A stretch of DNA of 63,323 bases, from contig JBBQLI010000003.1 of the NCBI GenBank assembly GCA_038327765.1, positions 1-63,323 of the forward strand, in the 5' to 3' direction. Origin of the DNA: Candidatus Limnocylindrales bacterium (GTDB lineage Bacteria; Chloroflexota; Limnocylindria; Limnocylindrales; CSP1-4). The first letter of the stretch is position 1; the number at the start of each line of letters is the position of its first letter. Shown here one piece after another: positions 4,419-61,772 of the stretch. The position numbers were made by a program, and so were the translations under genes. The notes beneath the pieces are model-generated. The model searched no databases. It saw only the letters and a program-made list of their open reading frames with translations, and had not been told where the DNA came from.

Positions 4419-4764
4419 AGGGCCGGCGGGGATGGCAGGATCGGCGAACGCCAGCCAGGCCGGGACTGTCACGCTGGCCATTCCTGCCCGGCCTGCTCGG
4501 TGGATGGGTCGTGGATGGCTACCCCTCCCACGCCGACTGATCTGTCGAACCGGAGCGGGGCAGGTCTCATCCCCTCAACGGTGAGTGCCGTCCTCCTCGA
4601 GGCGGGGACACGCGAGGCTCATCCTCGACGCCCTCACGATTGACTCTCGCAAAGTGCCAGCGTAGGCTGCCGCCAATCGGTGAGGTCAACGACGGCGGCG
4701 GCGGAGCGCCGAGCCAGGACCATCGACATGACCTGGACCTGCTCCTCGAAGGAGAGGGCTGCAC

Positions 4765-7700
4765 ATGTGGGTCTGGGGGCGGTTCCCGGTCGGCGTGGCG
4801 TCTATCGTCGTCATCGTCGCCCTGCTTCTCGCCGCCTGCAGCCCGACTCCCGCCCCCACACCTAGCCCAAGCCGTGGCCCGAGCACCCCGCCAGCCTCGC
4901 CCTCGCCCTCGCCGTCGGCCTCGACCCCAGCCCCGGCTTCGGGAGATCTGGCCCTCGAGGCCTGCGATGTCACCGGCTACGTTCCCTGCGAGCACCAGGC
5001 AGTCCGGCTTTCCCTGCCGATCGCCGGTACTGGTGCGGCCCTGACCTATTCGAGCGAATGGGCCGCCGGTCGCAAGGATCGCCAGGGCTGGGATGCCTCG
5101 GCCATCGGTCTTGGGGGCTGGTCGCTGGATATCCTGCAGCGATACGATCCGAAGGCCGGGGTGCTGCTCTCCGGCGACGGGTCGTGGCGGTTCGCGAAGG
5201 GCGTGACCCTGCCCTCGGGCGAGCACGCGGTGCCGACCTACGACGGCCTGATGGCCTACGTGTTCGACTCGAATGGGCGCCACGTGCGCACCGTCGATGC
5301 ACTCCTTGGTGTGACCCTGATCACGTTCTCCTACGACGCGGCCGGCCGGCTCTCCGGGGCAGACGGGACGCTGGCGAGCGCGCCGATCCACCTCGTCGTC
5401 GAGCGCGAGGCTGACGGGACGCTCGCCGGCCTCGTCGGGCTCGACGGGGCCCGGACGTCGCTCTTCCTCGGCAGCGACGGCCTTCTCGGCGGGATCCAGG
5501 ATCCGGCGGGCCGCACTACCGTCCTCGAATACGGGTCCGGCGGCCTTGTCACCAACTACGACGACGCGACAGGAGGTGTGACGGCGTACGGGTATGACGA
5601 CGCCGGTCGTCTGGTCTCCGCGAAGGACCCCGACGGCGTCACGGTGACGACGACCCGCACCACGACCGCCGATATGACCGAGGTCAAGTCGACCACGACC
5701 CTCGGCCGCTCGGTCGCCTACCGTGCGGAGCGAACGGGCGCCGGAGTGATCCGATCCTATGTGGCGCCCGATGGAACCCGGACGACCGTGTCCTCCGATC
5801 CATCTGGGCGGTACGCGGTCGCGCTTCCCGATGGGACGACGATCGCGCTAGGTTCGCAGGCCGACCCGCGCTGGGGGATGGACGCTCCGATCGCGACGCC
5901 GGTGGACCAGACGCGGCCGGATGGCGTCGTCCGGCACACGACCACCGCCATCACTGCGACGACCTCGGCCACCGACCCGCTCGCCGTCAGCGCCTGGTCC
6001 CGTACCGACATCATCGCTGGCGGGACATGGAACCAGATGGTGGACCCCGCCACGCGAACGATCACGTGGGCCGACCCTGCCAGCCGGAAGACCACCCAGA
6101 CGTACGACGCGTCCGGTCGGATGGTCTCGCAGACCAGGCCGGGACAGCCCAGCCTTGCGTTCGTCTACGACGGACACGGCCGGCTTGCCACGAGAACCTT
6201 GGGGAGCGGCGCTGCCACCGCCACGACCACCTTCACCTACGGAACAGACGGCACCCTGACCATCACGGGTCCCGACCAGCTCGTCCAGCATCTGACGGCC
6301 GACTCCGTCGGACAGATCGTCCGCCGGACAGCTGCGGACGGCTCGACGGTCCTGTCCGCGTATGACGGGCTTGGGCGGCTCGTGCGCGTGGCACCCGCTG
6401 GCCAGCCATCCACCACCATCGGCTATAGCGCCGCCGGACGGCAGACCGGGTTCCTGCCTCCGACCATCGGCGCCGATGGCTCCTACGAGGTGCGAACGTA
6501 CGACACGGACGGGAGGTTGGCGGCCATCGCGGGACCTGGTCAGCGCTCGATCGCGTATACGCGCGACGCGGCTGGCCGCATCACCGGCTGGACCTTCGAC
6601 CAGGGCACGGCCACGGCCGTCTACGATCCGACCACAGGACTTGTCGTGAAGACCGCTGCGCCTGGTGGGATCGACACGCTGGTCTCGTACGTGGGCGGGA
6701 TCCGGGTCGGTCGCAACGTGTCCGGCCCGGTCGTCGGCGCGGTGGCCGTGAGCCTCGACCCGTTCGGCCGGATGGCCGGCGTGTCGGTCGATGGGGCGCC
6801 GCCGATCGGCTACACGTACGACACGGTCGGCTACCTCACGAGCGTGGGGGACGTCTCCCTGCAACGCGACCCGGCGAGCGGTCAAGTCGCGGGAGCATCC
6901 CTTGGCACTGGGCGGACCACACGCGAGTACGACGCCCAGGGGCGACCGACGCACATCGTCACAGCCGCGAACGGTTCGTCGGCCATGCTCGACGCTCGCT
7001 ATGCGTACGACCTGCGCGGGCGCGTCACGAGCGTGACCGAGGTGCGCGGCGGCGGCAAACCGACGAACACGACCTACGCATACGACGATGCGGGGCGTCT
7101 GGCCGAGGTCTCCGTGAACGGGATCTCTGTCGAGCGCGACGGCTACGACGCGGCCGGTAACCGCGTTTCCGTGAAGACCTCCTCCGGTACGCTCAAGGCC
7201 ACGTACGACGACCGCGACCGGTTGCTCTCCTGGGGGGCGGCCAGGTACGTCTCTCGGCCGGACGGGCAGCTCGCGAGCGTGGCCGCCGGGGACGCCAACA
7301 CCCGCTTCACGTTCGACGACTTCGGAGTCCTGCGAGCGGTAGCCCTCCCGGACGGGCGGCGGATCGAGTACTTCGTTGACGCGGGGGGCGCGCGGATCGG
7401 GAAGAGGATCGACGGCACGCTCGTGGCGGGCTATCTCTACCGGCCCGACGGTGCCCTTGCGGCGCAGACCGACGGCAGCGGCGCCGTGGTCGCGCGCTTC
7501 GGCTATGACGATGCCGGGCGGCTCACGCTCGTCGAGCGCGGGGGCACGCGCTACCAGGTGGTCACCGATCGCCTCAGCAGTCCGCTCCTCGTCATCGACG
7601 CGGGTACTGGCGCCGTGGCTGAGGCCATCACCTACGATGCTTGGGGCCAAGTCACCTCCGATACGAACCCGGGCTTCATCCCGATCGGTTTCGCCGGCGG

Positions 7701-9576
7701 GCTGCGCGATGCGGATACGGGTCTGGTCAGGTTCGGGGCGCGCGAATACGACCCGCGAACCGGCCGCTGGACCGGGCCCGACCCGATTCAGTACGCCGGC
7801 GCAGACTCGGTCCTCTACCGATACGTGGCGAATGATCCGGTCAACGGGACTGACCCGACGGGTCTCGCCTCATACGCGCACCAGCCGCCGGAATTCACGC
7901 CACCTCCGAGGGACGGAGGTCGATCGCATTTTCCGAGGTTGGGTAGCAAGGATCCCGAGGGCTCGAACCCGACACCGACCGGCGGCGAATGCTCGAACGA
8001 CGGCTCCGGCTGCAACCGCGGCGCTCATGCGCAGCCGCCGGATGATCCCGGCCCTGGGACCGGCCCCGGCCTCCCGCCACCGCCACGTGGCAGTGCACCC
8101 TTCACGTGCTTCGGGGTATGCAAGATGCCGGACGGCACAACCTGCTACGGGTACTGCCACAGCGGCGAACCACACGAACGGTCCGGTGACGGCGTCCCAT
8201 TCGAGTTCCAGGCGGCCGGCGAGTTCCAGATGGTCGCCTCGCCAGACCGGAGTGTCGTCATCCAGGCCCGCCTGGAACCGTACGGCACCTCGAACCGCGT
8301 GACGCTTGGCACCGCGGTCGCGGCTTCGGTGGCCGGCGATCGCGTGGCGGTCTATGCGAGCGACAAGGTGCCGCTTGCGATCGCGGGCAAGCCGGATACC
8401 CGACCCGATCTCTCGGTGCGCCTGCCGCATGGTGGGATCGTGGAGCGCCATGGCCCGGTCGTCACGATCTCATGGCCCGGCGGCAGCCAGCTCACCGTCT
8501 CGCGTGCCGGAAGCCACCTTGACTTCTCATTCGACCCGGATGCAGCAACAGCGCCGACACTCCGCGGCCTGCTCGGCAGTGCTGACGGCAACCCGACGAA
8601 CGATTTCACGACACGTGACGGCACCGTGATCGCCCACGACGATCCGGCGTTCGCCACGAAGGTCTATGACCTGTTCGGGGCAAGCTGGCGGATCACGCAG
8701 TCCGAGTCGCTCTTCGACTACGGGCCGGGCCAGAGCACGGCCACGTACACCAAGCCGGCGATCCCCACGGCACCGGCGACGATCGATGCGCTCGATACGA
8801 CGGCGCGCGGCAACGCGGAGACGCTCTGCCGCGCGATGGGCGTGAGCCTCGAACCCGTCCTGACCGACTGCATCCTTGATGTGGGGCTCACGGGCGACTC
8901 GTCATATGCGGCGTCCGCCGCCGCGGTCCAGGTGTCCACCACACGGGCCGCCGCCGAGCCCCCGGGCGCGGCAGCCGGGGCGTCCACGTTCGACCAGAAG
9001 GTCAGCGGCACGATCACGAAGCCTTCGCAGGTCGACAAGACGACCTTCACCGCGAAGGCCGGCGATGTGGTCTACCTCCGCGCCCAGGGAGTCTGCGTGC
9101 CGGGTCTGCAGTGGCAGCTCGTCGCTCCGTCCGGCACCCACCTCGGCCTCGACTACCTCTGCCGCGACCTGGGCCGCTTCGTGCTCCCGGACGCGGGCAC
9201 GTACACGGTCGAGGTCAACTGGGACCAGACGACGACCGGAGGGTATGCGTTCGAGATCATCGGTGCGCCCGTCGAGCGCATCGCGGCCTACAGGGTCGGC
9301 CAGACCATCAGCGATACGACGACCCGGATCGGCGAGTGGCACCGCTACACGTTCACGGCAAAGGCCGGCGATGTCGTGGTCCTCGACGGCCTGGGCGCCT
9401 GCGTCGACGGGCTGCTGTGGCGGCTCGTCGGCCCAGCTGGCAACATCATCCTGGGCCACTCGTGCGACGACCTGGGCCGGGTCGTGCTCCCCGACGGGGG
9501 CACCTACGGGGTCGAGGTCTATTCCGACGGCACCGCTACAGGGGCCTACGCATTCCAGGTCCGCGCCGGCCCGTGA
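4765..9576 (+). CDS. Lipoprotein-anchored RHS/YD-repeat protein with a vWD-like plus 2x PPC-like C-terminal region
   Basis: Lipobox VALLLAAC followed by a Pro/Thr/Ser linker. There are dozens of YD repeats (YDAAGRL, YDDAGRLV, YDASGRM, YDGHGRL, YDTDGRL and others). RHS core: RFGAREYDPRTGRWTGPDPIQY...NDPVNGTDPTGL, ending at aa 1034 (nt 7866). This is followed by 569 aa containing GEPH (aa 1134-1137, vWD GDPH-like) and two ~70-aa repeats (TFTAKAGDVV...GGYAFEI / GAYAFQV). Confidence 0.9.
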   Translation: MWVWGRFPVGVASIVVIVALLLAACSPTPAPTPSPSRGPSTPPASPSPSPSASTPAPASGDLALEACDVTGYVPCEHQAVRLSLPIAGTGAALTYSSEWAAGRKDRQGWDASAIGLGGWSLDILQRYDPKAGVLLSGDGSWRFAKGVTLPSGEHAVPTYDGLMAYVFDSNGRHVRTVDALLGVTLITFSYDAAGRLSGADGTLASAPIHLVVEREADGTLAGLVGLDGARTSLFLGSDGLLGGIQDPAGRTTVLEYGSGGLVTNYDDATGGVTAYGYDDAGRLVSAKDPDGVTVTTTRTTTADMTEVKSTTTLGRSVAYRAERTGAGVIRSYVAPDGTRTTVSSDPSGRYAVALPDGTTIALGSQADPRWGMDAPIATPVDQTRPDGVVRHTTTAITATTSATDPLAVSAWSRTDIIAGGTWNQMVDPATRTITWADPASRKTTQTYDASGRMVSQTRPGQPSLAFVYDGHGRLATRTLGSGAATATTTFTYGTDGTLTITGPDQLVQHLTADSVGQIVRRTAADGSTVLSAYDGLGRLVRVAPAGQPSTTIGYSAAGRQTGFLPPTIGADGSYEVRTYDTDGRLAAIAGPGQRSIAYTRDAAGRITGWTFDQGTATAVYDPTTGLVVKTAAPGGIDTLVSYVGGIRVGRNVSGPVVGAVAVSLDPFGRMAGVSVDGAPPIGYTYDTVGYLTSVGDVSLQRDPASGQVAGASLGTGRTTREYDAQGRPTHIVTAANGSSAMLDARYAYDLRGRVTSVTEVRGGGKPTNTTYAYDDAGRLAEVSVNGISVERDGYDAAGNRVSVKTSSGTLKATYDDRDRLLSWGAARYVSRPDGQLASVAAGDANTRFTFDDFGVLRAVALPDGRRIEYFVDAGGARIGKRIDGTLVAGYLYRPDGALAAQTDGSGAVVARFGYDDAGRLTLVERGGTRYQVVTDRLSSPLLVIDAGTGAVAEAITYDAWGQVTSDTNPGFIPIGFAGGLRDADTGLVRFGAREYDPRTGRWTGPDPIQYAGADSVLYRYVANDPVNGTDPTGLASYAHQPPEFTPPPRDGGRSHFPRLGSKDPEGSNPTPTGGECSNDGSGCNRGAHAQPPDDPGPGTGPGLPPPPRGSAPFTCFGVCKMPDGTTCYGYCHSGEPHERSGDGVPFEFQAAGEFQMVASPDRSVVIQARLEPYGTSNRVTLGTAVAASVAGDRVAVYASDKVPLAIAGKPDTRPDLSVRLPHGGIVERHGPVVTISWPGGSQLTVSRAGSHLDFSFDPDAATAPTLRGLLGSADGNPTNDFTTRDGTVIAHDDPAFATKVYDLFGASWRITQSESLFDYGPGQSTATYTKPAIPTAPATIDALDTTARGNAETLCRAMGVSLEPVLTDCILDVGLTGDSSYAASAAAVQVSTTRAAAEPPGAAAGASTFDQKVSGTITKPSQVDKTTFTAKAGDVVYLRAQGVCVPGLQWQLVAPSGTHLGLDYLCRDLGRFVLPDAGTYTVEVNWDQTTTGGYAFEIIGAPVERIAAYRVGQTISDTTTRIGEWHRYTFTAKAGDVVVLDGLGACVDGLLWRLVGPAGNIILGHSCDDLGRVVLPDGGTYGVEVYSDGTATGAYAFQVRAGP

Positions 9577-53111: not shown

Positions 53112-53172
53112 GTCGCCATGATGCCGTGACGCATCGACCTCGTACACTCGGGCGCATGGTCGATGAACGCGC

Positions 53173-54045
53173 ATGCCGGACCTGAACCGCGAGATCGCGC
53201 CGCCGACGAGGCACGTGACGAATCGGCGGATCCTCGCGGTCCGTGGCGATTCCCTCGAGGTGCGTGATGACCGGATCGTCGGCGAGGCGCCGCTGGAGAT
53301 CCGCGCCGCGGGGCCACACCAGCACCCGGTGGCAGTCGCAGTCACGATGCGGACGCCCGGCCACGAGGACGAGCTGGCGGTCGGCTTCCTCTGCACAGAG
53401 GGCCTGATCGACGGGGCCGCGGTGGTCTCCACCAGGCACGGCGACCCGTCAGCGCTCAGCCAGCCCGACGACACGATCGTGGTCAGGCTGTCACGCGCCT
53501 TCGACGATTCGAAGGTGGCCGAACGCCATTTCATCGCGACCGCCTCGTGCGGGATCTGCGGCAAGGCCTCGATCGATGAGGTCGCGTTGCGCATCGACCC
53601 GATCCCCGACGGCCCGGTGGTGAGTCGATCGGTGATCCTGGCCCTGCCCGACCTCCTGCGTACCGCCCAGAAGGCGTTCGACGAGACCGGCGGTCTCCAT
53701 GCGGCCGGTCTGTTCGCTCCCAACGGCGAACTCGTGGTCCTGCGCGAAGACGTCGGGCGACACAACGCGCTCGACAAGGTCATCGGTTCGCAGGTGCTCG
53801 CCGGTGCACTCCCCCTCCACGAACGGATCCTGATGGTGTCTGGCCGGGTCAGCTTCGAGCTCGTGCAGAAGGCCGCCGCGGCCGGGATCCCGATCGTGTG
53901 CGCTGTGTCGGCGCCCTCGGACCTCGCGATCGAGACCGCCGAGCGACTCAACGTGACCCTGGTCGGCTTCCTGCGCGGCACGGGGTTCAACATCTATGCG
54001 CATGACGCCCGGATCGACTTGCGCGACCTTTCCGGCTGGGGCTGA
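53173..54045 (+). CDS. fdhD: Formate dehydrogenase accessory sulfurtransferase FdhD
   Basis: FdhD motifs: EDELAVGFLCTEGLI, the catalytic-loop ASCGICGK, and GRHNALDKVIG. Confidence 0.9.
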   Translation: MPDLNREIAPPTRHVTNRRILAVRGDSLEVRDDRIVGEAPLEIRAAGPHQHPVAVAVTMRTPGHEDELAVGFLCTEGLIDGAAVVSTRHGDPSALSQPDDTIVVRLSRAFDDSKVAERHFIATASCGICGKASIDEVALRIDPIPDGPVVSRSVILALPDLLRTAQKAFDETGGLHAAGLFAPNGELVVLREDVGRHNALDKVIGSQVLAGALPLHERILMVSGRVSFELVQKAAAAGIPIVCAVSAPSDLAIETAERLNVTLVGFLRGTGFNIYAHDARIDLRDLSGWG

Positions 54046-54993: not shown

Positions 54994-55350
54994 TCAGAAG
55001 AGGCGGCCACCATCCGGGACGGGCCGCTCGGGGCGGACCAGCACCACGGCGCCGTCCGCGTCTGGGAACCCCAGCGTCAGCACCTCGGAGATGACCGTGG
55101 CGATCTGGCGCGGCGGAAAGTTGATCACGGCCGCGACCTGTCGGCCGATGAGCGCGTCGGGCGAGTAGTGGACGGTGATCTGCGCCGAACTGCGCTTCAC
55201 CCCAAGCTCCGGGCCGAAATCGATCTCGAGACGGATCGCCGGCCTGCGCGCCCCCTTGAGCGGTTCGGCCGCCACGATCGTCCCCACCCGGATATCGACA
55301 CGTTCGAAGTCGTCGATCCCGATCACGGGTCGACCGCCCGCGTCGCTCAT
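54994..55350 (-). CDS. csaA: tRNA-binding (EMAP/Trbp111-fold) protein CsaA
   Basis: FERVDIRVGTIVAAEPL...LEIDFGPELGVKRSSAQIT...LIGRQVAAVINFPPRQI is the CsaA pattern. The ATG at 55350 overlaps the upstream stop (ATGA). Confidence 0.84.
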   Translation of the reverse strand: MSDAGGRPVIGIDDFERVDIRVGTIVAAEPLKGARRPAIRLEIDFGPELGVKRSSAQITVHYSPDALIGRQVAAVINFPPRQIATVISEVLTLGFPDADGAVVLVRPERPVPDGGRLF

Positions 55351-56408
55351 CGGCGTGGCTTCGGTGGTCGCTCGTTGACGAATTCGAAGCCGAAGCGCCC
55401 CTTGATGCAGAGATGGCCTTCGGTCACGGATGAGTCGAGTGGCGATGTGACCTTGAGGATCTTCTCGTCCTGGACGTGAAGCTCCACGGCGCAGCCCACA
55501 CCGCAATACGGGCAGATGGTCTCGGTCACCGTCTGCTGGGACGGATCCCACGTGCCGGCGGCGCGCATGTCGTACTCGGGCTTGGCCATCAGGGCACCCG
55601 TCGGACAGACCCCGATGCAGTTGCCGCAGTAGACGCAGGCACTCTCCGGCAGCGGGACGGCCTGTTCGGTGGAGATCCGGGCGTCGAACCCGCGCCCCGC
55701 GACCGCGATCGCGAAGGTGTTCTGGGCGTCCTCACCGCAGGCTTCGACGCACTTGTAGCAGAGGATGCAGCGCGAGTAGTCGCGGACGTAGAGGTTGTTG
55801 TCGACCTTGGTCGGCTGGGCGACGGTGGCCGCCGCCGCATCGCCACCGGGTGCGTGATGGTGACCCGCCTCGTTCGCATCCCGTTCGCCGGCCGCTGCCG
55901 GCTGAGCCGGCGGTCCGTAGCGTGTCGGATCGGCGCCGTAGCGCTGGGCGTATGCCGCCACGGAACCATCCGGCACTGCCGCACCCGCGAGCGAGATGTC
56001 CACCGACGAACCGAGGAATTCCAGGACCATCTTGCGCGACGTCCGAACGCGCTCCGAATCGGCCTGGACGTCCATCCCTGCTTCCACGGGCCGCGAGCAG
56101 GCCGGGACCAGGACACGCGATCCCGTGACTTCCACCACGCACACGCGGCAGACGTTCACTGGCGTCAGGTTCTCGGCGTAGCACAGGGTCGGGGTGTCGA
56201 TGCCCTGCTGTCGGCATGCACCGAGGATCGTCGTCCCTGCGGGGACGGTCACGGTCTCGCCGTCGATGGTGAGGGCGATCTGGGGTGGCGCCTCGACGAC
56301 CGGCGCGGCTGGCGCTCGCGATGCCCGTGCCGGCGGATCAAGCAGGATCGACGAGAGCGGCGGCGACACGGTCTCGTCGAATCGCGCGGGGCCAGGATCG
56401 TGGGTCAC
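55347..56408 (-). CDS. Formate dehydrogenase alpha, N-terminal Fe-S half only (2Fe-2S, 2x 4Fe-4S and Mo-bisPGD-type 4Fe-4S domains)
   Basis: LTIDGETVTVPAGTTILGACRQQGIDTPTLCY...CRVCVVEV (2Fe-2S). CILCYKCVEAC and CVYCGNCIGVCP (4Fe-4S). ICPYCGVGCAVEL...GHLCIKGRFGFEFV (MopB N-terminal cluster). It then stops after NERPPKPRR. The GTG at 56408 overlaps the NuoEF-like stop (GTGA). Confidence 0.85.
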   Translation of the reverse strand: MTHDPGPARFDETVSPPLSSILLDPPARASRAPAAPVVEAPPQIALTIDGETVTVPAGTTILGACRQQGIDTPTLCYAENLTPVNVCRVCVVEVTGSRVLVPACSRPVEAGMDVQADSERVRTSRKMVLEFLGSSVDISLAGAAVPDGSVAAYAQRYGADPTRYGPPAQPAAAGERDANEAGHHHAPGGDAAAATVAQPTKVDNNLYVRDYSRCILCYKCVEACGEDAQNTFAIAVAGRGFDARISTEQAVPLPESACVYCGNCIGVCPTGALMAKPEYDMRAAGTWDPSQQTVTETICPYCGVGCAVELHVQDEKILKVTSPLDSSVTEGHLCIKGRFGFEFVNERPPKPRR

Positions 56409-58255
56409 AGGGTCACCAGCTCGGGCTGTCGGAGCGCGGATTCGATGGCCGACGAGGCCGTCTGGCCCAGACCGCAGATCGAGGCGTCGCGCATCACCTG
56501 GCCGATCTCCCGGAGGAGCGCCAATTCCTCGTCCCGCGGCCGGACGCGTGAACCTGCCGCCATGCGTGCCATCAGTTCTTCCTGGCGGACCGTCCCCACC
56601 CGGCACGGGACGCACTGCCCGCAGGACTCATCGCGGAAGAACTGCGCGATCCGGCGCAAGGTCCCGACCAGATCCGCGGTCTCGTCGAAGACCATGATCA
56701 CGCCCGAACCGAGGGTCGCGCCGGTCGCACGGGTCGCTTCCATCGTGAGCGGCATGTCGAGCGCATCCGGTCCGACGAACACGCCCGCGGCACCACCGAG
56801 CAGCACGGCCTTGAGGGCACGGCCACCCGCGATGCCGCCGGCCATCTCGATCAGCTCGCCCAGAGTGGCACCGAAATCCACCTCGTACGTGCCCGGTCGT
56901 TCGACATTGCCGGACAGGCAGAAGAGTTTCGGCCCCGTCGAACCCTCGGTACCGATCCGGGCGAAGGCGTCGCCACCCATCGTCATCAGCAACGGCACGT
57001 TGACCAGCGTTTCGATGTTGTTGACGACGGTCGGCTTGCCGAACAGCCCCTTCTCGACCGGGAATGGCGGCTTGTTGCGCGGCTCGCCGCGCTTGCCCTC
57101 GATCGACTCGAAGAGCGCCGTCTCCTCGCCGCAGATATAGGCGCCCGCCCCGCGGCGAAGCTCGATATCGAAGGCGAAGTCCGAACCGGCGATGGCTGGG
57201 CCGAGCATCCCGGTCGCGCGGGCTGCAACCAGCGCCGCGGTGATGCGCATCTCGGCCTCGGGGTACTCGCCGCGCAGGTAGATGAACCCCATCGAGGATC
57301 CTGTCGCAAACGCGGCGATCGTCATCGCTTCGACGATGGCGAACGGGTCGCCCTCGATCAGGACCCGATCCTTGAAGGTCCCGGGCTCGGATTCGTCGGC
57401 GTTGCAGATGACGTAATGCGGCTGCGCGGTCTGGGCCGCGACGGCCGCCCACTTGCGACCCGTCGGGAAGGCCGCTCCGCCACGGCCCTGCAGCTTCGAC
57501 GCGCTGACTTCAGCGAGGACTGCCTCCGGGCCGATCTCGAGGGCACGGGTCAAGCCTGCGTAGCCGCCATGCGCGCGGTACTCGTCGATCGAGCCCGGGT
57601 CGACGACGCCGATGCGACCCAGCAGGCGCAGGCCCGCTTGCCGTTGCTGGCGGATCGGCTCGGAGGCTCGTGGCACGCCGCCGCCGCTCTCGAGTCGCGC
57701 CACGACCCCGGCTGCATCGACCGGCGCGATGGTCACGGTCGTTGGCCGCTCCCCGGCCGACGTGATCATCGCGGCCGGCGCCAGCTCGCACAGGCCCAGG
57801 CAGGGAGAGCGCAGCCAGGTCGTTCGGCCTTCTCCATCGGGCGTCCCAGCGATACCGCGGGCGCGTTCGAGGTCCTCGCAGATACGCTCCGCGCCAGCGA
57901 GCCGGCAGGCGATGTCGTCGCAGACGTGCGCGACGACCGGTGGTCGTGGCTTCGTTGCGTACAGGGCATAGAACGTGGCCACGCCATACGCCTCGGCAGG
58001 TGGCACGGCCAGGCGCTTGGAGATGTAGTTGAGTGCCGGCTGGCTGATCCAGCCGATCCGGGACTGGACCGCATGCAGCGCGGGCAGCAGCTGCGAGCGT
58101 CGTGCCCGGATGGCGTGCCCACCCTCGGCGGCGTGCCCATCGGTAGCGCTATCGCGTCGACCGCCGACCCAGCCGGACTCGGGCTGACCGAGGACCGCGT
58201 CCACCGCGGCCCGTTCGGCCGTTGATGCAAGCGGCCCGATGACGTGCAGATCCAT
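56405..58255 (-). CDS. NuoE-NuoF-like fusion: NAD(H)-binding FMN/Fe-S diaphorase subunit of formate dehydrogenase
   Basis: NuoE-like 2Fe-2S: VCDDIACRL...SPCLGLCELAP. NuoF motifs: GRGGAAFPTGRKW, ICNADESEPGTFKDR and ESCGQCVPCRVG. The start is the ATG at 58255 or the GTG at 58294. Confidence 0.88.
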   Translation of the reverse strand: MDLHVIGPLASTAERAAVDAVLGQPESGWVGGRRDSATDGHAAEGGHAIRARRSQLLPALHAVQSRIGWISQPALNYISKRLAVPPAEAYGVATFYALYATKPRPPVVAHVCDDIACRLAGAERICEDLERARGIAGTPDGEGRTTWLRSPCLGLCELAPAAMITSAGERPTTVTIAPVDAAGVVARLESGGGVPRASEPIRQQRQAGLRLLGRIGVVDPGSIDEYRAHGGYAGLTRALEIGPEAVLAEVSASKLQGRGGAAFPTGRKWAAVAAQTAQPHYVICNADESEPGTFKDRVLIEGDPFAIVEAMTIAAFATGSSMGFIYLRGEYPEAEMRITAALVAARATGMLGPAIAGSDFAFDIELRRGAGAYICGEETALFESIEGKRGEPRNKPPFPVEKGLFGKPTVVNNIETLVNVPLLMTMGGDAFARIGTEGSTGPKLFCLSGNVERPGTYEVDFGATLGELIEMAGGIAGGRALKAVLLGGAAGVFVGPDALDMPLTMEATRATGATLGSGVIMVFDETADLVGTLRRIAQFFRDESCGQCVPCRVGTVRQEELMARMAAGSRVRPRDEELALLREIGQVMRDASICGLGQTASSAIESALRQPELVTL

Positions 58256-58320
58256 GGTCACCGAGTGTAGCGACGCGGTGACCGAGCCGGGCACATCGTC
58301 CCGGGGCGGCGCGGTGGAAG

Positions 58321-58340
58321 CGTGTGCTACCGTGTGCTAC
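58321..58340 (+). promoter_or_regulatory. Perfect tandem 10-bp direct repeat abutting the vapB start; candidate antitoxin operator
   Basis: CGTGTGCTAC CGTGTGCTAC lies immediately 5' of the ATG at 58341, in the divergent region between the diaphorase gene and vapB. Confidence 0.3.
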
Positions 58341-58649
58341 ATGAGCGAAATGGCGCACCGGCCGGCGCGCGTCGGGGTACGCGAGCTACGCCAGAACCTC
58401 AGCGTCTACCTGGAGCGCGTCAAGGCGGGTGAGACGCTCGAGGTGACCGACCACGGGCAGCCCGTCGCGCGCCTGGATCCGATCCCTGTGGAACCGATGT
58501 CGATCATCGACCAGATGATCGCGGATGGTCGCGCGACGGCAGCCACCTTCGACCACCGGCTCATCCCGCCGCCGCTGCCGAACCCTGACCCCGACGGGCC
58601 TACGCTCACCGAGATCCTGCTCCAGATGCGCGACGAGGATGACCGGTGA
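58341..58649 (+). CDS. vapB: Phd/YefM-type antitoxin (VapB)
   Basis: RVGVRELRQNLSVYLERVKAGETLEVTDHGQPVARLDP is the typical antitoxin N-terminus. Its stop overlaps the vapC GTG (GTGA). Confidence 0.8.
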   Translation: MSEMAHRPARVGVRELRQNLSVYLERVKAGETLEVTDHGQPVARLDPIPVEPMSIIDQMIADGRATAATFDHRLIPPPLPNPDPDGPTLTEILLQMRDEDDR

Positions 58650-59035
58650 AACTGGCCTACGTCGATTCGTCGGCGCTCGCGAAACTCATCCTTGACGAAG
58701 CCGATGCCAGCGCGATGCGTCGCTGGTATGTCGAGGCAGAGCAGGTCGCGTGCAGCGTCGTGGGCACCATCGAAACCCGGCGAGCGGTCGCCCGAAAGGT
58801 CGACGCTCCTGATCGTGTGGATCTGATCCTTCGTTCGGTGATCCGGCTCGACATCGACGCCGGCATCGCCAGGGTCGCGGCTGCGCTGCCGCCGTTGGCT
58901 CTGCGGACGCTTGATGCGATCCATCTCGCGTCGGCGCTTACATTGATCAGCGAACTCGACGCATTCGTGACCTATGACGACCGGCTCGCTGCCGCGGCGC
59001 GAACCGTCGGTCTCCCGGTCATCCGGCCGGCCTGA
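58646..59035 (+). CDS. vapC: PIN-domain toxin VapC
   Basis: MKLAYVDSSALAKLIL...TLDAIHLASAL...DAFVTYDDRL contains the PIN acidic residues. Confidence 0.85.
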   Translation: MKLAYVDSSALAKLILDEADASAMRRWYVEAEQVACSVVGTIETRRAVARKVDAPDRVDLILRSVIRLDIDAGIARVAAALPPLALRTLDAIHLASALTLISELDAFVTYDDRLAAAARTVGLPVIRPA

Positions 59036-59037
59036 CC

Positions 59038-59445
59038 ATGCCGACCGATGCCGAGCGAGCGATCGAGCTGTTCGAGATCGCGGGCGATCACGATTCGGCC
59101 GGCCGCGAGACCGATGCCGAAGGCCCGTATCGGGAGGCGATCGCACTCGGGCTGCCGCCGGACCTTGACGTGCGCGCCCATATCCAGCTCGCCAGCACGC
59201 TGCGCAATCTCGAACGGTTCGACGAGGCGGTCGCGATCCTGCGCGAGGTCACGGCGGCTCACCCGGAGCACCGCGCCGCACGGATGTTCCTCTCGCTGGC
59301 GCTGGTCAGCGACGGGCAGGGCGCCGCGGCCGTGCACGAATTGCTTGACGTGCTTCTGACGAACCCCGGACCGCCCGAGCGCTATGCGCGGTCCCTGCGC
59401 TGGTACGCCGACGACCTCGTCGGCAAGGTGTCGGGGGAGGACTAG
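59038..59445 (+). CDS. Small tetratricopeptide-repeat protein
   Basis: TPR-like helices: AERAIELFEIAGDHDSAGRETDAEGPYREAIALG and ASTLRNLERFDEAVAILREVTAAHPEH. Confidence 0.62.
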   Translation: MPTDAERAIELFEIAGDHDSAGRETDAEGPYREAIALGLPPDLDVRAHIQLASTLRNLERFDEAVAILREVTAAHPEHRAARMFLSLALVSDGQGAAAVHELLDVLLTNPGPPERYARSLRWYADDLVGKVSGED

Positions 59446-59762
59446 GCGCCGGGCGCCCGATAGGTCGGGTGCAGCTTGACTGCGTCGTCGATGTCCTCGG
59501 CCGTCAGGAGCACGACCGTACTGATCGAGACGCTCCCAGCGGCGCCGGTGGTGGCCGCGAGGGCTGCCGCAGCCGCCTGGCTCGGCAGGTCCGCGAGGAC
59601 GTAGAAATCGTCCGTGCCGAACGCCCAGTACATCTCGTCGACGTGCCCACCAAGGCTCTTGGCGAGCGCATCGACCGCCTTGCGTCGACCGGTGCCGCCG
59701 TCCTTCAGGACGCCCTGGATACCGGCCTGGGTATACGAACCGTGGAACAGGTACTTCGCCAT
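59442..59762 (-). CDS. GYD-domain protein
   Basis: MAKYLFHGSYTQAGIQGVLKDGGTGRRKAVDALAKSLGGHVDEMYWAFGTDDFYVLADLP is the GYD-family pattern. Confidence 0.8.
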   Translation of the reverse strand: MAKYLFHGSYTQAGIQGVLKDGGTGRRKAVDALAKSLGGHVDEMYWAFGTDDFYVLADLPSQAAAAALAATTGAAGSVSISTVVLLTAEDIDDAVKLHPTYRAPGA

Positions 59763-59858
59763 CGCGCGCGCCTCCAATGGGTGTCGGGATCGACCGCTGG
59801 CACGCATCGTGGCACTGACCTGCGCCGCCGACAAGGACGTTGCGGAACTGACATCGGG

Positions 59859-61772
59859 TCAGGTCGTGAGGGGCTCCCCGAGCTTCTCGATACGGATGGC
59901 CGTGGCTTTGAATTCGGCCGTGCCGGACTTCGGGTCGGTGGCGTCGATCGTGAGCAGATTGACGGCCACCTCGTCCTGGAAGTGCATCGTCATGAAGGTC
60001 AATCCGGGCCGCAGTGACGGATCGGTCCGGACCCCGACCTCCACCTGCCCGCGCCGCGACACGACCCGGACGACCTCGCCCTCGGCCAGAGCGAACCGCG
60101 CGACATCCTCGGGCGACATGTCCAGCGACTCGCCGCGGCGCAGCGGGGAGGTGTAGCCGGCGGTCTGGACGCCCGTGTTGTACGAGTCGAGCCGACGGCC
60201 CGTGGTGAGCCGGATCGGGAAGTCCGCATCGAGCTTGTCGACGGGCGGGTCGTGGTCGACCGGCACGAACGGCACACGGTTGCCGGGCAGCGGGTCTTCC
60301 CACAGCCGGCTGTGCAGGTACAGCTCGCCCGGGTGGGTCTCGTCCCAGCATGGCCACTGGAGACCGCCCTCGTTCGCGAGGCGCGCGTAGCTCATCCCGG
60401 CATGGACCGGGGACAGGCGCCGGACCTCGTTCCAGACCGTCTCCGGATCCGGCTCGCCCCACGCCCCGCCCATCCGGTTGGCCAGCTCGAAGATGATCGC
60501 GAGATCGTCGCGGGCGCCGTCCGGCGGAGCGACGGCCTTGCGGACGCGTTGGACCCGTCGCTCTGAGTTGGTGACGGTGCCCTCGCTCTCGGCCCAGGCC
60601 GCCGTGGCCGGGAAGACGACGTCGGCGAGCTCCGCGGTCTTCGTCAGGAACAGATCCTGGACCACCAGGAAGTCGAGGCCCTGCAGCAGGTGGATCGCCT
60701 TCTTCTGGTCCGCCTCCGACTGGACCGGGTTCTCGCCGATGCAATAGACCGCGGTCAGGTCGCCGCGCTCCATCGCCTCGAACATCCCGGATAGGTGCCA
60801 GCCGCGCTTGGGCGGGACGGTCACACCCCATTCAGCATCGAAGCGGGCGCGGATCGCATCGTTCTCGACGTGCTGGAACCCGACGAGCCGATCGGGGAGG
60901 GCGCCCATGTCGCCGCCACCCTGGACGTTGTTCTGGCCCCGGAGCGGATTGACGCCACTCCCATAGCGACCGATATGTCCGGTGAGCAGGACCAGCGAGA
61001 TGAGCGCCAGGACGTTGTCGACCGCGTTGTGGTGCTCGGTGATGCCAAGGGTCCAGCAGATCATCGCGCGCGGAGCTGTCGCGAACGCATGGGCGAGGTC
61101 GCGGATCGCCGCGGCGGGCACCCCGGTCTCGCGCTCCGCGTATTCGAGGGTGTACGACTCGACCTTGGTCTTGTACGCCTCGAACCCCTCGGTCGAGTGC
61201 TCGATGAATGCCTTGTGGTGGAGGTCGGCCGCGATGATCTCGCGCGCCATCGCGTTGGCCAGGGCGATGTCGGAGCCGACATCGAGACCCAGCCAGCCAT
61301 CGGCCCATTCCGCGGACGAGGTCCGGCGCGGGTCGATCGCGTAGAGCTTCGCGCCCTTGTTGACGGCCTTGAGGACGCGATGGAAGAAGATCGGATGTGT
61401 CTCACGGGCATTGCTGCCCCAGAGGACGATCAGATCGGTGTCCTCGACCTCACGGTATGAACTTGTGCCACCACCGGCACCGAACACGGTCGCCAGACCG
61501 GCGACACTCGGGGCGTGTCAGGTGCGGTTGCAGCTGTCGATGTTGTTGCTGCCCAGGATCGTCCGGCTGAACTTCTGTGCCGCGAAGTTGACCTCGTTGG
61601 TCGCCTTGCTGCAGCTGAAGGTGCCGAAGGTCGTCGGGCCGTGGGCGGCCTTCGCCGCCCGGAACCCGGCGACCGTTCGATCGAGCGCCTCGTCCCAGGT
61701 CGCGGGACGCAGCTCGCCGTCCTTCGTGTCGCGCACGAGAGGCTGGGTCAGTCGCATGTAGGGTTTCGCCAC
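59859..61772 (-). CDS. fdhA: Formate dehydrogenase alpha, catalytic Mo/W-bisPGD half, selenocysteine-containing (TGA at 61518-61520 read as Sec)
   Basis: ORFs 61518-61772 and 59859-61487 are in the same frame. The joined product reads ...GSNNIDSCNRT-U-HAPSVAGLATVFGAGGG..., parallel to E. coli FdhF ...CCARV-U-HGPSVAGL. Other MopB motifs are present (NPLRGQNNVQGGGDMGALP; GENPVQSEAD). It has its own GTG start at 61772, 7 nt after AGGAGG (61780-61785). Confidence 0.85.
61489..61505 (-). other. Bacterial SECIS-like hairpin downstream of the fdhA UGA
   Basis: On the minus strand: UGA, 12 nt, then GUCGCC-GGUCU-GGCGAC (6-bp stem). GGU CUG occupies codons +7/+8 after UGA, the same offset as the GGUCUG apical loop of the E. 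coli fdhF SECIS. Confidence 0.6.

Follow-up and report, generated by a model that had tools for sequence, protein, structure and literature searches.

The window analysed here is a 63,323-nt stretch of DNA from a Candidatus Limnocylindrales bacterium of the Chloroflexota (assembly GCA_038327765.1, contig JBBQLI010000003.1, positions 1 to 63,323). Near one end, its minus strand carries a formate dehydrogenase (FDH) gene with an in-frame TGA at codon 85 of 637 (positions 61520-61518 of a gene running from 61772 to 59859). Directly past this codon the mRNA can form a hairpin of the kind expected for a selenocysteine insertion sequence (SECIS), and further downstream lie genes for a NuoE-NuoF fusion protein, a NuoG-like iron-sulfur protein and the maturation factor FdhD (Table 1). 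From the conservation of the codon, its flanks and the hairpin, we consider it very likely that the TGA is a selenocysteine (Sec) codon within a single intact FDH gene.

Table 1 Features of the FDH locus in the window, with the Sec gene and its RNA elements listed first.
Feature	Position	Strand	Remarks
Probable selenoprotein gene, FDH catalytic subunit with molybdenum or tungsten (Mo/W) bis-pterin site (C-terminal part of a split alpha subunit)	59859..61772	-	637 codons plus TGA stop; Sec predicted at codon 85; complete
In-frame UGA, probably read as Sec (catalytic Mo/W ligand, His next)	61518..61520	-	Codon, frame, alignment, 80/80 relatives
Putative SECIS core hairpin	61489..61505	-	5' stem GUCGCC 61505-61500; loop GGUCU 61499-61495; 3' stem GGCGAC 61494-61489
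Possible lower stem	61480..61511	-	CCGAG 61511-61507 with UUCGG 61484-61480; would extend the SECIS; non-universal
NuoE-NuoF fusion, diaphorase module (2Fe-2S, FMN/NAD(H) site, 4Fe-4S)	56405..58294	-	Pfam and NCBIfam
NuoG-like iron-sulfur subunit, N-terminal part of the split alpha subunit	55347..56615	-	Maximal open reading frame; true start probably near 56400
FdhD sulfurtransferase for FDH cofactor maturation	53167..54045	+	Pfam FdhD-NarQ E 2e-65; NCBIfam NF001943 271.8 bits vs 269
GYD-domain gene	59442..59834 (wider range to 59858)	-	Directly downstream of the catalytic gene; Pfam GYD E 3.8e-23
DegT/DnrJ/EryC1 aminotransferase gene	61830 to ~62960	-	Adjacent upstream of the FDH gene

Around the codon, the minus strand reads AGC TGC AAC CGC ACC TGA CAC GCC CCG AGT GTC GCC GGT CTG GCG ACC GTG TTC GGT. 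In the list of open reading frames (ORFs), the TGA is the stop of one ORF (61518-61772), and a second ORF in the same frame (59859-61487) begins at the first GTG, 10 codons past it; the stop-to-stop frames are contiguous. An earlier note, made from the sequence alone, had described two same-frame ORFs parted only by TGA. This is true of the frame, though the second ORF is listed from the GTG 10 codons on. The read-through peptide given in that note, NIDSCNRT-[UGA]-HAPSVAGLATVFGAGGG, agrees with the translation (NIDSCNRT-*-HAPSVAGLATVFGAGGG), and the tryptic peptide that read-through predicts across the UGA is T-U-HAPSVAGLATVFGAGGGTSSYR. The gene starts at a GTG at 61772, with an AGGAGG motif 7 nt before it (61785-61780), and in two relatives (L009 and L010) a stop codon immediately precedes the homologous GTG. 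The terminal stop, TGA 59861-59859, is ordinary and has no such hairpin. Among the stops in the window, TGA is the commonest for ORFs with a high G+C content at third codon positions (GC3), and it also ends the FDH gene itself. Therefore, a reassignment of UGA in the genetic code was rejected.

When the UGA is read through, the 637-aa product matches Pfam Molybdopterin (E 7e-70) and Molydop_binding (E 6.6e-25). Solved cytoplasmic FDHs of the FdhF type were matched at E 1e-132 to 1e-138, including 7qv7_S (1e-137), 7bkb_D (2e-137), 9t1s_L and 1aa6_A (E. coli FDH-H, 2.7e-132). The protein also matches the C-terminal two thirds of the alpha subunits of enzymes linked to nicotinamide adenine dinucleotide (NAD), namely residues 308-932 of 6tg9_A (FdsA) and 372-978 of 7vw6_A (MeFDH1). 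In the structure alignments, the TGA column holds the catalytic Cys in 7qv7_S and 7bkb_D and X (Sec) in 9t1s_L, and the catalytic His comes next. Both U85-H86 and the Arg of PLRGQNNVQG are present, and the solved FDHs have these residues at the aligned positions; the motif C/UH...RGQ is the active-site signature of class I FDHs (PMC8808070). The UGA thus stands at the catalytic position of an FDH, as had been claimed for it. The TIGR01591 profile (Fdh-alpha) scored 629.6 bits over profile positions 52-672, below its cut-off of 666.25; profile positions 1-51 were unmatched, and the protein is without the N-terminal FS0 [4Fe-4S] domain. By homology, the gene encodes the catalytic Mo/W-pterin subunit of a soluble FDH that is probably linked to NAD or its phosphate (NAD(P)).

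Relatives were sought with one genome scanned per species. At least 594 species-level genomes matched, and 80 loci were kept for comparison, including Chloroflexota/Limnocylindria, Methylomirabilota, Acidobacteriota, Planctomycetota and Gaiellales among others. The codon is TGA in all 80 and is flanked by invariant NRT and HAPSV. Upstream of it, at least 83 codons are open in every locus except L035, where the contig ends inside the gene. Downstream, about 548-566 codons are open, except in four loci (L013, L018, L037 and L075) that either run into a contig end or appear disrupted. A genuine truncation in close relatives had been raised as a possible counter-indication; the flanks are intact in all but these few loci. 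Between the UGA and the GTG lie the 10 codons of HAPSVAGLAT, of which eight residues are invariant and two vary only as A/V and T/A/M. Codons +2 to +4 after the UGA show synonymous variation only, and since they precede the first downstream start, this stretch is translated. Its translation in turn rules out an error in sequencing, a recently acquired nonsense mutation and a two-polypeptide model.

Gene callers were expected to fragment the gene, and they have done so. Among database proteins, the 120 nearest ones (83-91% identity) are without exception pieces of 540-551 aa. Each begins beyond the UGA and spans just the remainder of the gene, so all were cut at one and the same point. A 65%-identical homologue that is likewise split and short at its N-terminus (P0137, locus L081) reads SCNRT-C-HAPSVAGL, with the Cys codon TGT in the DNA. 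As read from these alignments, the TGA family and this TGT homologue form a classic Sec/Cys pairing. Alignment to Cys- and Sec-type homologues, proposed earlier as a check, therefore returned Cys in 7qv7_S, 7bkb_D and L081 and X (Sec) in 9t1s_L. The C-terminal part of the called L081 protein looks frameshifted.

The hairpin derives from a 17-nt inverted repeat, GTCGCC-GGTCT-GGCGAC, which starts 12 nt past the TGA and is unique within the window. It was examined in the aligned sequences of the window and its 80 relatives (81 in all, 79 distinct). The six GUCGCC/GGCGAC pairs are standard in 100% of the sequences, and the only stem changes are 20 one-sided switches to G.U that come from A-to-V, T-to-A and T-to-M replacements. 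RNAalifold independently predicts the same helix from the alignment. The hairpin named in the earlier note is thus seen at 61505-61489 and is paired in 81 of 81 sequences. The third-position entropies of codons +5 to +9 (V, A/V, G, L, A) are 0, 0, 0.33, 0 and 0 bits, compared with 1.2-1.9 bits at four-fold sites of equally invariant residues (codons -2, -1, +2, +3, +4, +10, +11, +13 and +15 to +18). Synonymous sites are therefore frozen only within the hairpin, and an RNA-level constraint coincides exactly with it. The Cys-type locus L081 (3770-3890) provides a natural control (n = 1), in which three of the frozen positions are altered (GCC to GCG, GGT to GGC and GCG to TCG) and the hairpin is degraded, with four of the six stem pairs left.

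The element was set against the general constraints on bacterial SECIS (bSECIS) elements. These are a loop of 3-9 nt on an upper stem of 4-16 bp (PMC13188914, Fig. 2A), a G at loop position 1 or 2 that is usually followed by G or U, a UGA-to-loop distance of 16-37 nt and a minimum free energy (MFE) of at most -7.5 kcal/mol (PMC13188914). The window's hairpin has a 5-nt loop (GGUCU) on a 6-bp stem. Its loop opens with GG and then U, both G being invariant in the 81 sequences, and begins 18 nt from the UGA (a 12-nt spacer plus the 6-nt 5' stem). The MFE of the 29-nt element is -11.6 kcal/mol. Of the possible lower stem, the two outer C-G pairs are invariant and the three inner pairs are broken in 22-47 of the 79 distinct sequences, suggesting that this extension is lineage-specific at best. 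The loop is GGUCU in 75 of the 79 distinct sequences, the variable site being alignment column 39 (window 61497). It is GGGCU in three Methylomirabilota/Rokubacteria genomes (L040, L041 and L049) and GGACU in one of the Planctomycetia (L056); these variants may reflect lineage-specific preferences of SelB.

Several results weigh against reading the UGA as Sec in this genome. Compared with shuffled sequences, the 29-nt hairpin has a z-score of -1.73, with 8 of 200 shuffles folding equally well, which is not significant. In contexts of 47-60 nt the single-sequence MFE prefers a competing fold, and the z-score is again not significant. Neither pair counting nor RNAalifold found double-sided compensatory covariation in the 81-sequence alignment. 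An Rfam scan of the whole window at gathering threshold matched no family, and the best local match on 61420-61560, SECIS_3 (RF01989), scored 14.7 bits against a gathering score of 63 (E 0.76 in the 141-nt search). A tRNA scan of the 63-kb window found no tRNA genes, tRNA-Sec included, and a motif scan and tblastn found no SelA, SelB or SelD in it (one spurious 47-aa match). Synteny with the relatives, which is kept downstream of the FDH gene, is lost from about 61815, some 40 nt upstream of the start.

The folding results have to be read beside that of the authentic E. coli SECIS, whose z-score in the same shuffle test is only -0.94, so the single-sequence test has little power. Absence of double-sided covariation is expected, since the peptide is nearly invariant. 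The competing MFE fold was rejected, as it pairs in 82.7% of alignment cells and several of its pairs are broken in 24-58 of the 79 distinct sequences. A SECIS covariance model had been suggested as a check, and here the expectation failed: the curated Rfam model stays under its threshold, and membership of SECIS_3 was rejected on its 14.7 bits. The SECIS_3 alignment is full length (model positions 1-59, spanning 61523-61467), with the UGA and the apical GUCUGGC in register. The model appears to have been built on a different, FDH-N-like gene group, with the translated consensus V-U-H-G-P-T-V-A-S-L-A-P-T-F-G-R-G-A-M. Other Rfam E-value matches on 61420-61560 (CPEB3, PYLIS_2 and Sernc389) were dismissed as noise. 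Thus, the single sequence indicates only weakly that the hairpin exceeds chance, and the comparison of relatives indicates it strongly. These patterns suggest a hairpin under RNA-level purifying selection that fits the general bSECIS model; dependence on SelB is predicted, with indirect support from this selection and from its relaxation in the single Cys homologue compared.

As for the Sec machinery, the window includes just 1.5 kb of the DNA that precedes the FDH gene. To look past its end, an exact-protein look-up and a 64-nt exact search of JGI metagenome contigs were made, and neither gave a match. In about 36 relatives, ARAGORN located tRNA-Sec (anticodon TCA) at most 10 kb upstream of the gene, and tblastn recovered SelA in 27, SelB in 25 and SelD in 37 of the related loci. 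Among the ORFs next to the gene in L009 and L015, the best scores against the NCBIfam equivalog cut-offs were 441 bits for selA (cut-off 268), 286 for selB (242) and 341 for selD (125). The relatives carry selB, selA and tRNA-Sec on one strand and selD on the other, leading towards fdhA, and in several of them, such as L001, the sel genes lie more than 7 kb upstream. In bacteria, fdhA often adjoins a selA-selB-selC operon, and FdhA was the largest selenoprotein family in a bacterial survey, with 103 sequences (Zhang et al. 2006, PMC1794560). The window's relatives show the same linkage, with selB, selA, tRNA-Sec and selD near fdhA, whereas the upstream neighbour in the window is the DegT-family aminotransferase gene, a homologue of which occurs in 0 of the 80 related loci. 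The selB ORF of L009 (3847-6219, minus) encodes 790 aa, of which residues ~599-787 match MobA (molybdenum cofactor guanylyltransferase). This ORF is a SelB-MobA fusion or else the result of an assembly error that joined two genes in a long-read metagenome-assembled genome.

The absence of sel genes from the window is relevant to two other explanations. If the TGA were a mutated or misread TGC or TGT Cys codon, the gene would be a pseudogene or a product of sequencing error. The unseen sel genes, and database entries that list just 542-aa fragments, would be in keeping with this. However, 80 of 80 species-level genomes, each assembled independently, have TGA at this codon, which effectively refutes it; both flanks are intact and conserved as amino acids, and the RNA hairpin downstream is under selection. 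We give this explanation practically no weight. Loss of the machinery is a different matter. UGA may be recoded in the lineage while this particular genome has lost the Sec genes, leaving the FDH gene silent or translated by inefficient near-cognate (Trp or Cys) read-through. Synteny does break just upstream, where relatives keep selD, tRNA-Sec, selA and selB within 2-9 kb, and the window is without any sel gene. On the other hand, the gene with its UGA and hairpin is perfectly intact and agrees with the consensus of the relatives, the operon is complete and undamaged, as is fdhD, and the position of the sel genes in relatives such as L001 lies beyond the 1.5 kb that the window covers. Such a loss is very unlikely, and it is still the least improbable of the alternatives.

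A further possibility is true termination at the UGA followed by re-initiation at GTG 61487, which would give polypeptides of 84 and 542 aa and an enzyme without a Cys or Sec ligand. The in-frame GTG 10 codons downstream, chosen by gene callers, and the fact that the family already tolerates one split of its alpha subunit speak for it. However, HAPSVAGLAT between the UGA and the GTG is strongly conserved, and the synonymous-only changes at codons +2 to +4 indicate that it is translated. Immediately after the UGA comes the catalytic His, re-initiation would cost the enzyme its metal ligand, and the Cys-type homologue is continuous through the site. Re-initiation is therefore very improbable, though not quite as far-fetched as a mutated or misread codon, and insertion of Sec at the UGA is by far the preferred reading.

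By analogy with E. coli fdhF, the mRNA just downstream of the UGA would fold during translation into GUCGCC-GGUCU-GGCGAC, with the GG(U) loop starting 18 nt after the UGA. This hairpin would bind SelB-GTP-Sec-tRNA(Sec) and deliver it to the UGA in the A site, and Sec would be inserted as residue 85, next to His86, where it would ligate the metal. The enzyme would then be assembled from three operon products: the Sec subunit, the NuoE-NuoF fusion and the NuoG-like iron-sulfur protein with FS0. From the sequence comparisons we infer that SelB binds, that selenium is incorporated, that this genome has selABCD, that the enzyme is linked to NAD(P) and that the split subunit assembles. In itself, the Sec recoding is ordinary, textbook biology that works like that of E. 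coli fdhF.

The two genes share many features. In E. coli FdhF (Sec140) the UGA also stands at the catalytic metal-ligand position with His next. The peptide is likewise U-H-(G/A)-P-S-V-A-G-L, with the V-A-G-L codons forming the top of the hairpin, and homology extends over the whole length of the protein (1aa6_A, E 2.7e-132). The placement of GGUCUG at codons +7/+8, pointed out earlier as a shared feature, holds in both genes, and the predicted loop begins at the same nucleotide. The E. coli fdhF segment used for this comparison, TGACACGGCCCATCGGTTGCAGGTCTGCACC, was confirmed in 5,419 E. coli genomes and falls within fdhF. In contrast, the stem of the E. coli SECIS is GGUUGCA/UGCACC rather than GUCGCC/GGCGAC, and its predicted loop has 4 nt where that of the window has 5; the window's stem is without the bulged U. 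E. coli FdhF also has its own N-terminal Fe4S4 domain, whereas the window protein starts at about FdhF residue 61. The partners of FdhF belong to the hydrogenase-3 complex, whereas those encoded here are NuoEF-like and NuoG-like.

The missing N-terminal domain is encoded at the far end of the operon. The NuoG-like iron-sulfur protein (2Fe-2S and 4Fe-4S clusters) carries Pfam Fer2_4 and Fer4 domains and, at its end, Molybdop_Fe4S4 (FS0, residues 366-418). It aligns with residues 5-304 of FdsA (6tg9_A), and its residues 370-420 match TIGR01591 positions 1-51 with 54.5 bits; the TIGR01591 scores of the Sec protein and the iron-sulfur protein sum to ~684 bits. In these alignments the alpha subunit is cut exactly where the FS0 domain meets the Mo domain, with FdsA divided into 5-304 and 308-932 and TIGR01591 into 1-51 and 52-672. 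No Fe4S4 domain was found in the upstream ORFs of any of the 80 relatives. In the representative search, the nearest clusters at 50% identity were Sec-type fragments, and unsplit proteins of ~680-700 aa or 890-910 aa appeared at 46% identity or less. The NuoE-NuoF fusion contains the Pfam domains 2Fe-2S_thioredx, Complex1_51K, SLBB and NADH_4Fe-4S, with regions matching NCBIfam nuoF_fam and nuoE_fam. Judged from domain content alone, the three proteins may be the subunits of a soluble formate:NAD(P)+ oxidoreductase that receives its FS0 domain in trans; the link to NAD(P) is suggested by the NuoF module, which binds flavin mononucleotide (FMN) and NADH.

Across several phyla, 65-72 of the 80 loci preserve the permuted gene order (Mo part, NuoEF, Fe-S part): the NuoEF gene follows the catalytic gene in 72 loci and the iron-sulfur protein gene is found in 65. 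In distant phyla the three genes lie side by side. The clade of the window has a GYD-domain gene, a Phd/PIN toxin-antitoxin pair and a TPR gene inserted into the operon. The GYD-domain gene abuts the stop of the Sec-FDH gene and occurs in only 7 of the 80 related loci, so it is accessory and no core subunit. The FdhD gene is present in 37 of the 80. Between the catalytic gene and the NuoEF gene, on the strand opposite to that of the FDH gene, lie the Phd/YefM antitoxin and PIN-domain toxin pair and the TPR gene (58188-59035 and 58978-59445, both plus); near the FDH gene, the toxin-antitoxin pair turns up again in 13 of the related loci, and the TPR gene does so in two. Elsewhere in the window, positions 4732-9576 (plus) encode a 1,614-aa RHS-repeat/YD-shell protein, a candidate polymorphic toxin or cell-surface protein.

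The same modules (NuoG-like Fe-S, FDH Mo/W, NuoE-like and NuoF-like) make up FdsABG(D) of Rhodobacter capsulatus and Cupriavidus necator and MeFDH1 (Fdh1AB) of Methylorubrum extorquens. FdsA residues 5-304 and 308-932 are together covered by the two window proteins, and FdhD is encoded nearby in the window. However, the alpha subunit of these known enzymes is one polypeptide, whereas that of the window is split, and the coding region for their catalytic domain does not precede the diaphorase genes. In the window NuoE and NuoF are fused; the MeFDH1 beta subunit is a similar NuoE-NuoF fusion. The known enzymes also have Cys and no Sec (PMC13397495). The NAD-linked FDHs listed in the reviews consulted are unsplit and of the Cys type only (PMC13397495, PMC8808070), and a literature search of limited coverage found no described split FdsA and no split, permuted, Sec-type architecture of the FdsA kind.

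We suggest, tentatively and with less than even confidence, that the gene belongs to an undescribed and very widespread family of soluble NuoEF-linked FDHs, with matches in at least 594 species-level genomes; the 80 loci compared come from several soil and sediment phyla. Its features may be an alpha subunit split at the FS0/Mo boundary, a permuted gene order, a catalytic part that almost always contains Sec and a near-invariant 17-nt SECIS across phyla. The split shifts the UGA from around codon 350-390 of an FdsA-type alpha subunit of ~900 aa to codon 85 of a short gene. This shift might be adaptive, given that inefficient Sec insertion is costly.

Reading the UGA as Sec restores a complete catalytic subunit, where the database fragments of ~542 aa are without the active-site residue. 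It also points to Limnocylindria-like Chloroflexota, along with several further soil phyla, as probable selenium users in formate metabolism. The architecture is the more interesting point: a Sec-dependent, NuoEF-linked FDH whose alpha subunit appears to be split exactly after FS0. If the three proteins assemble, they would represent a natural case of an iron-sulfur domain supplied in trans to a molybdo- or tungsto-enzyme, and a compact Sec-FDH module of possible interest for CO2 reduction.

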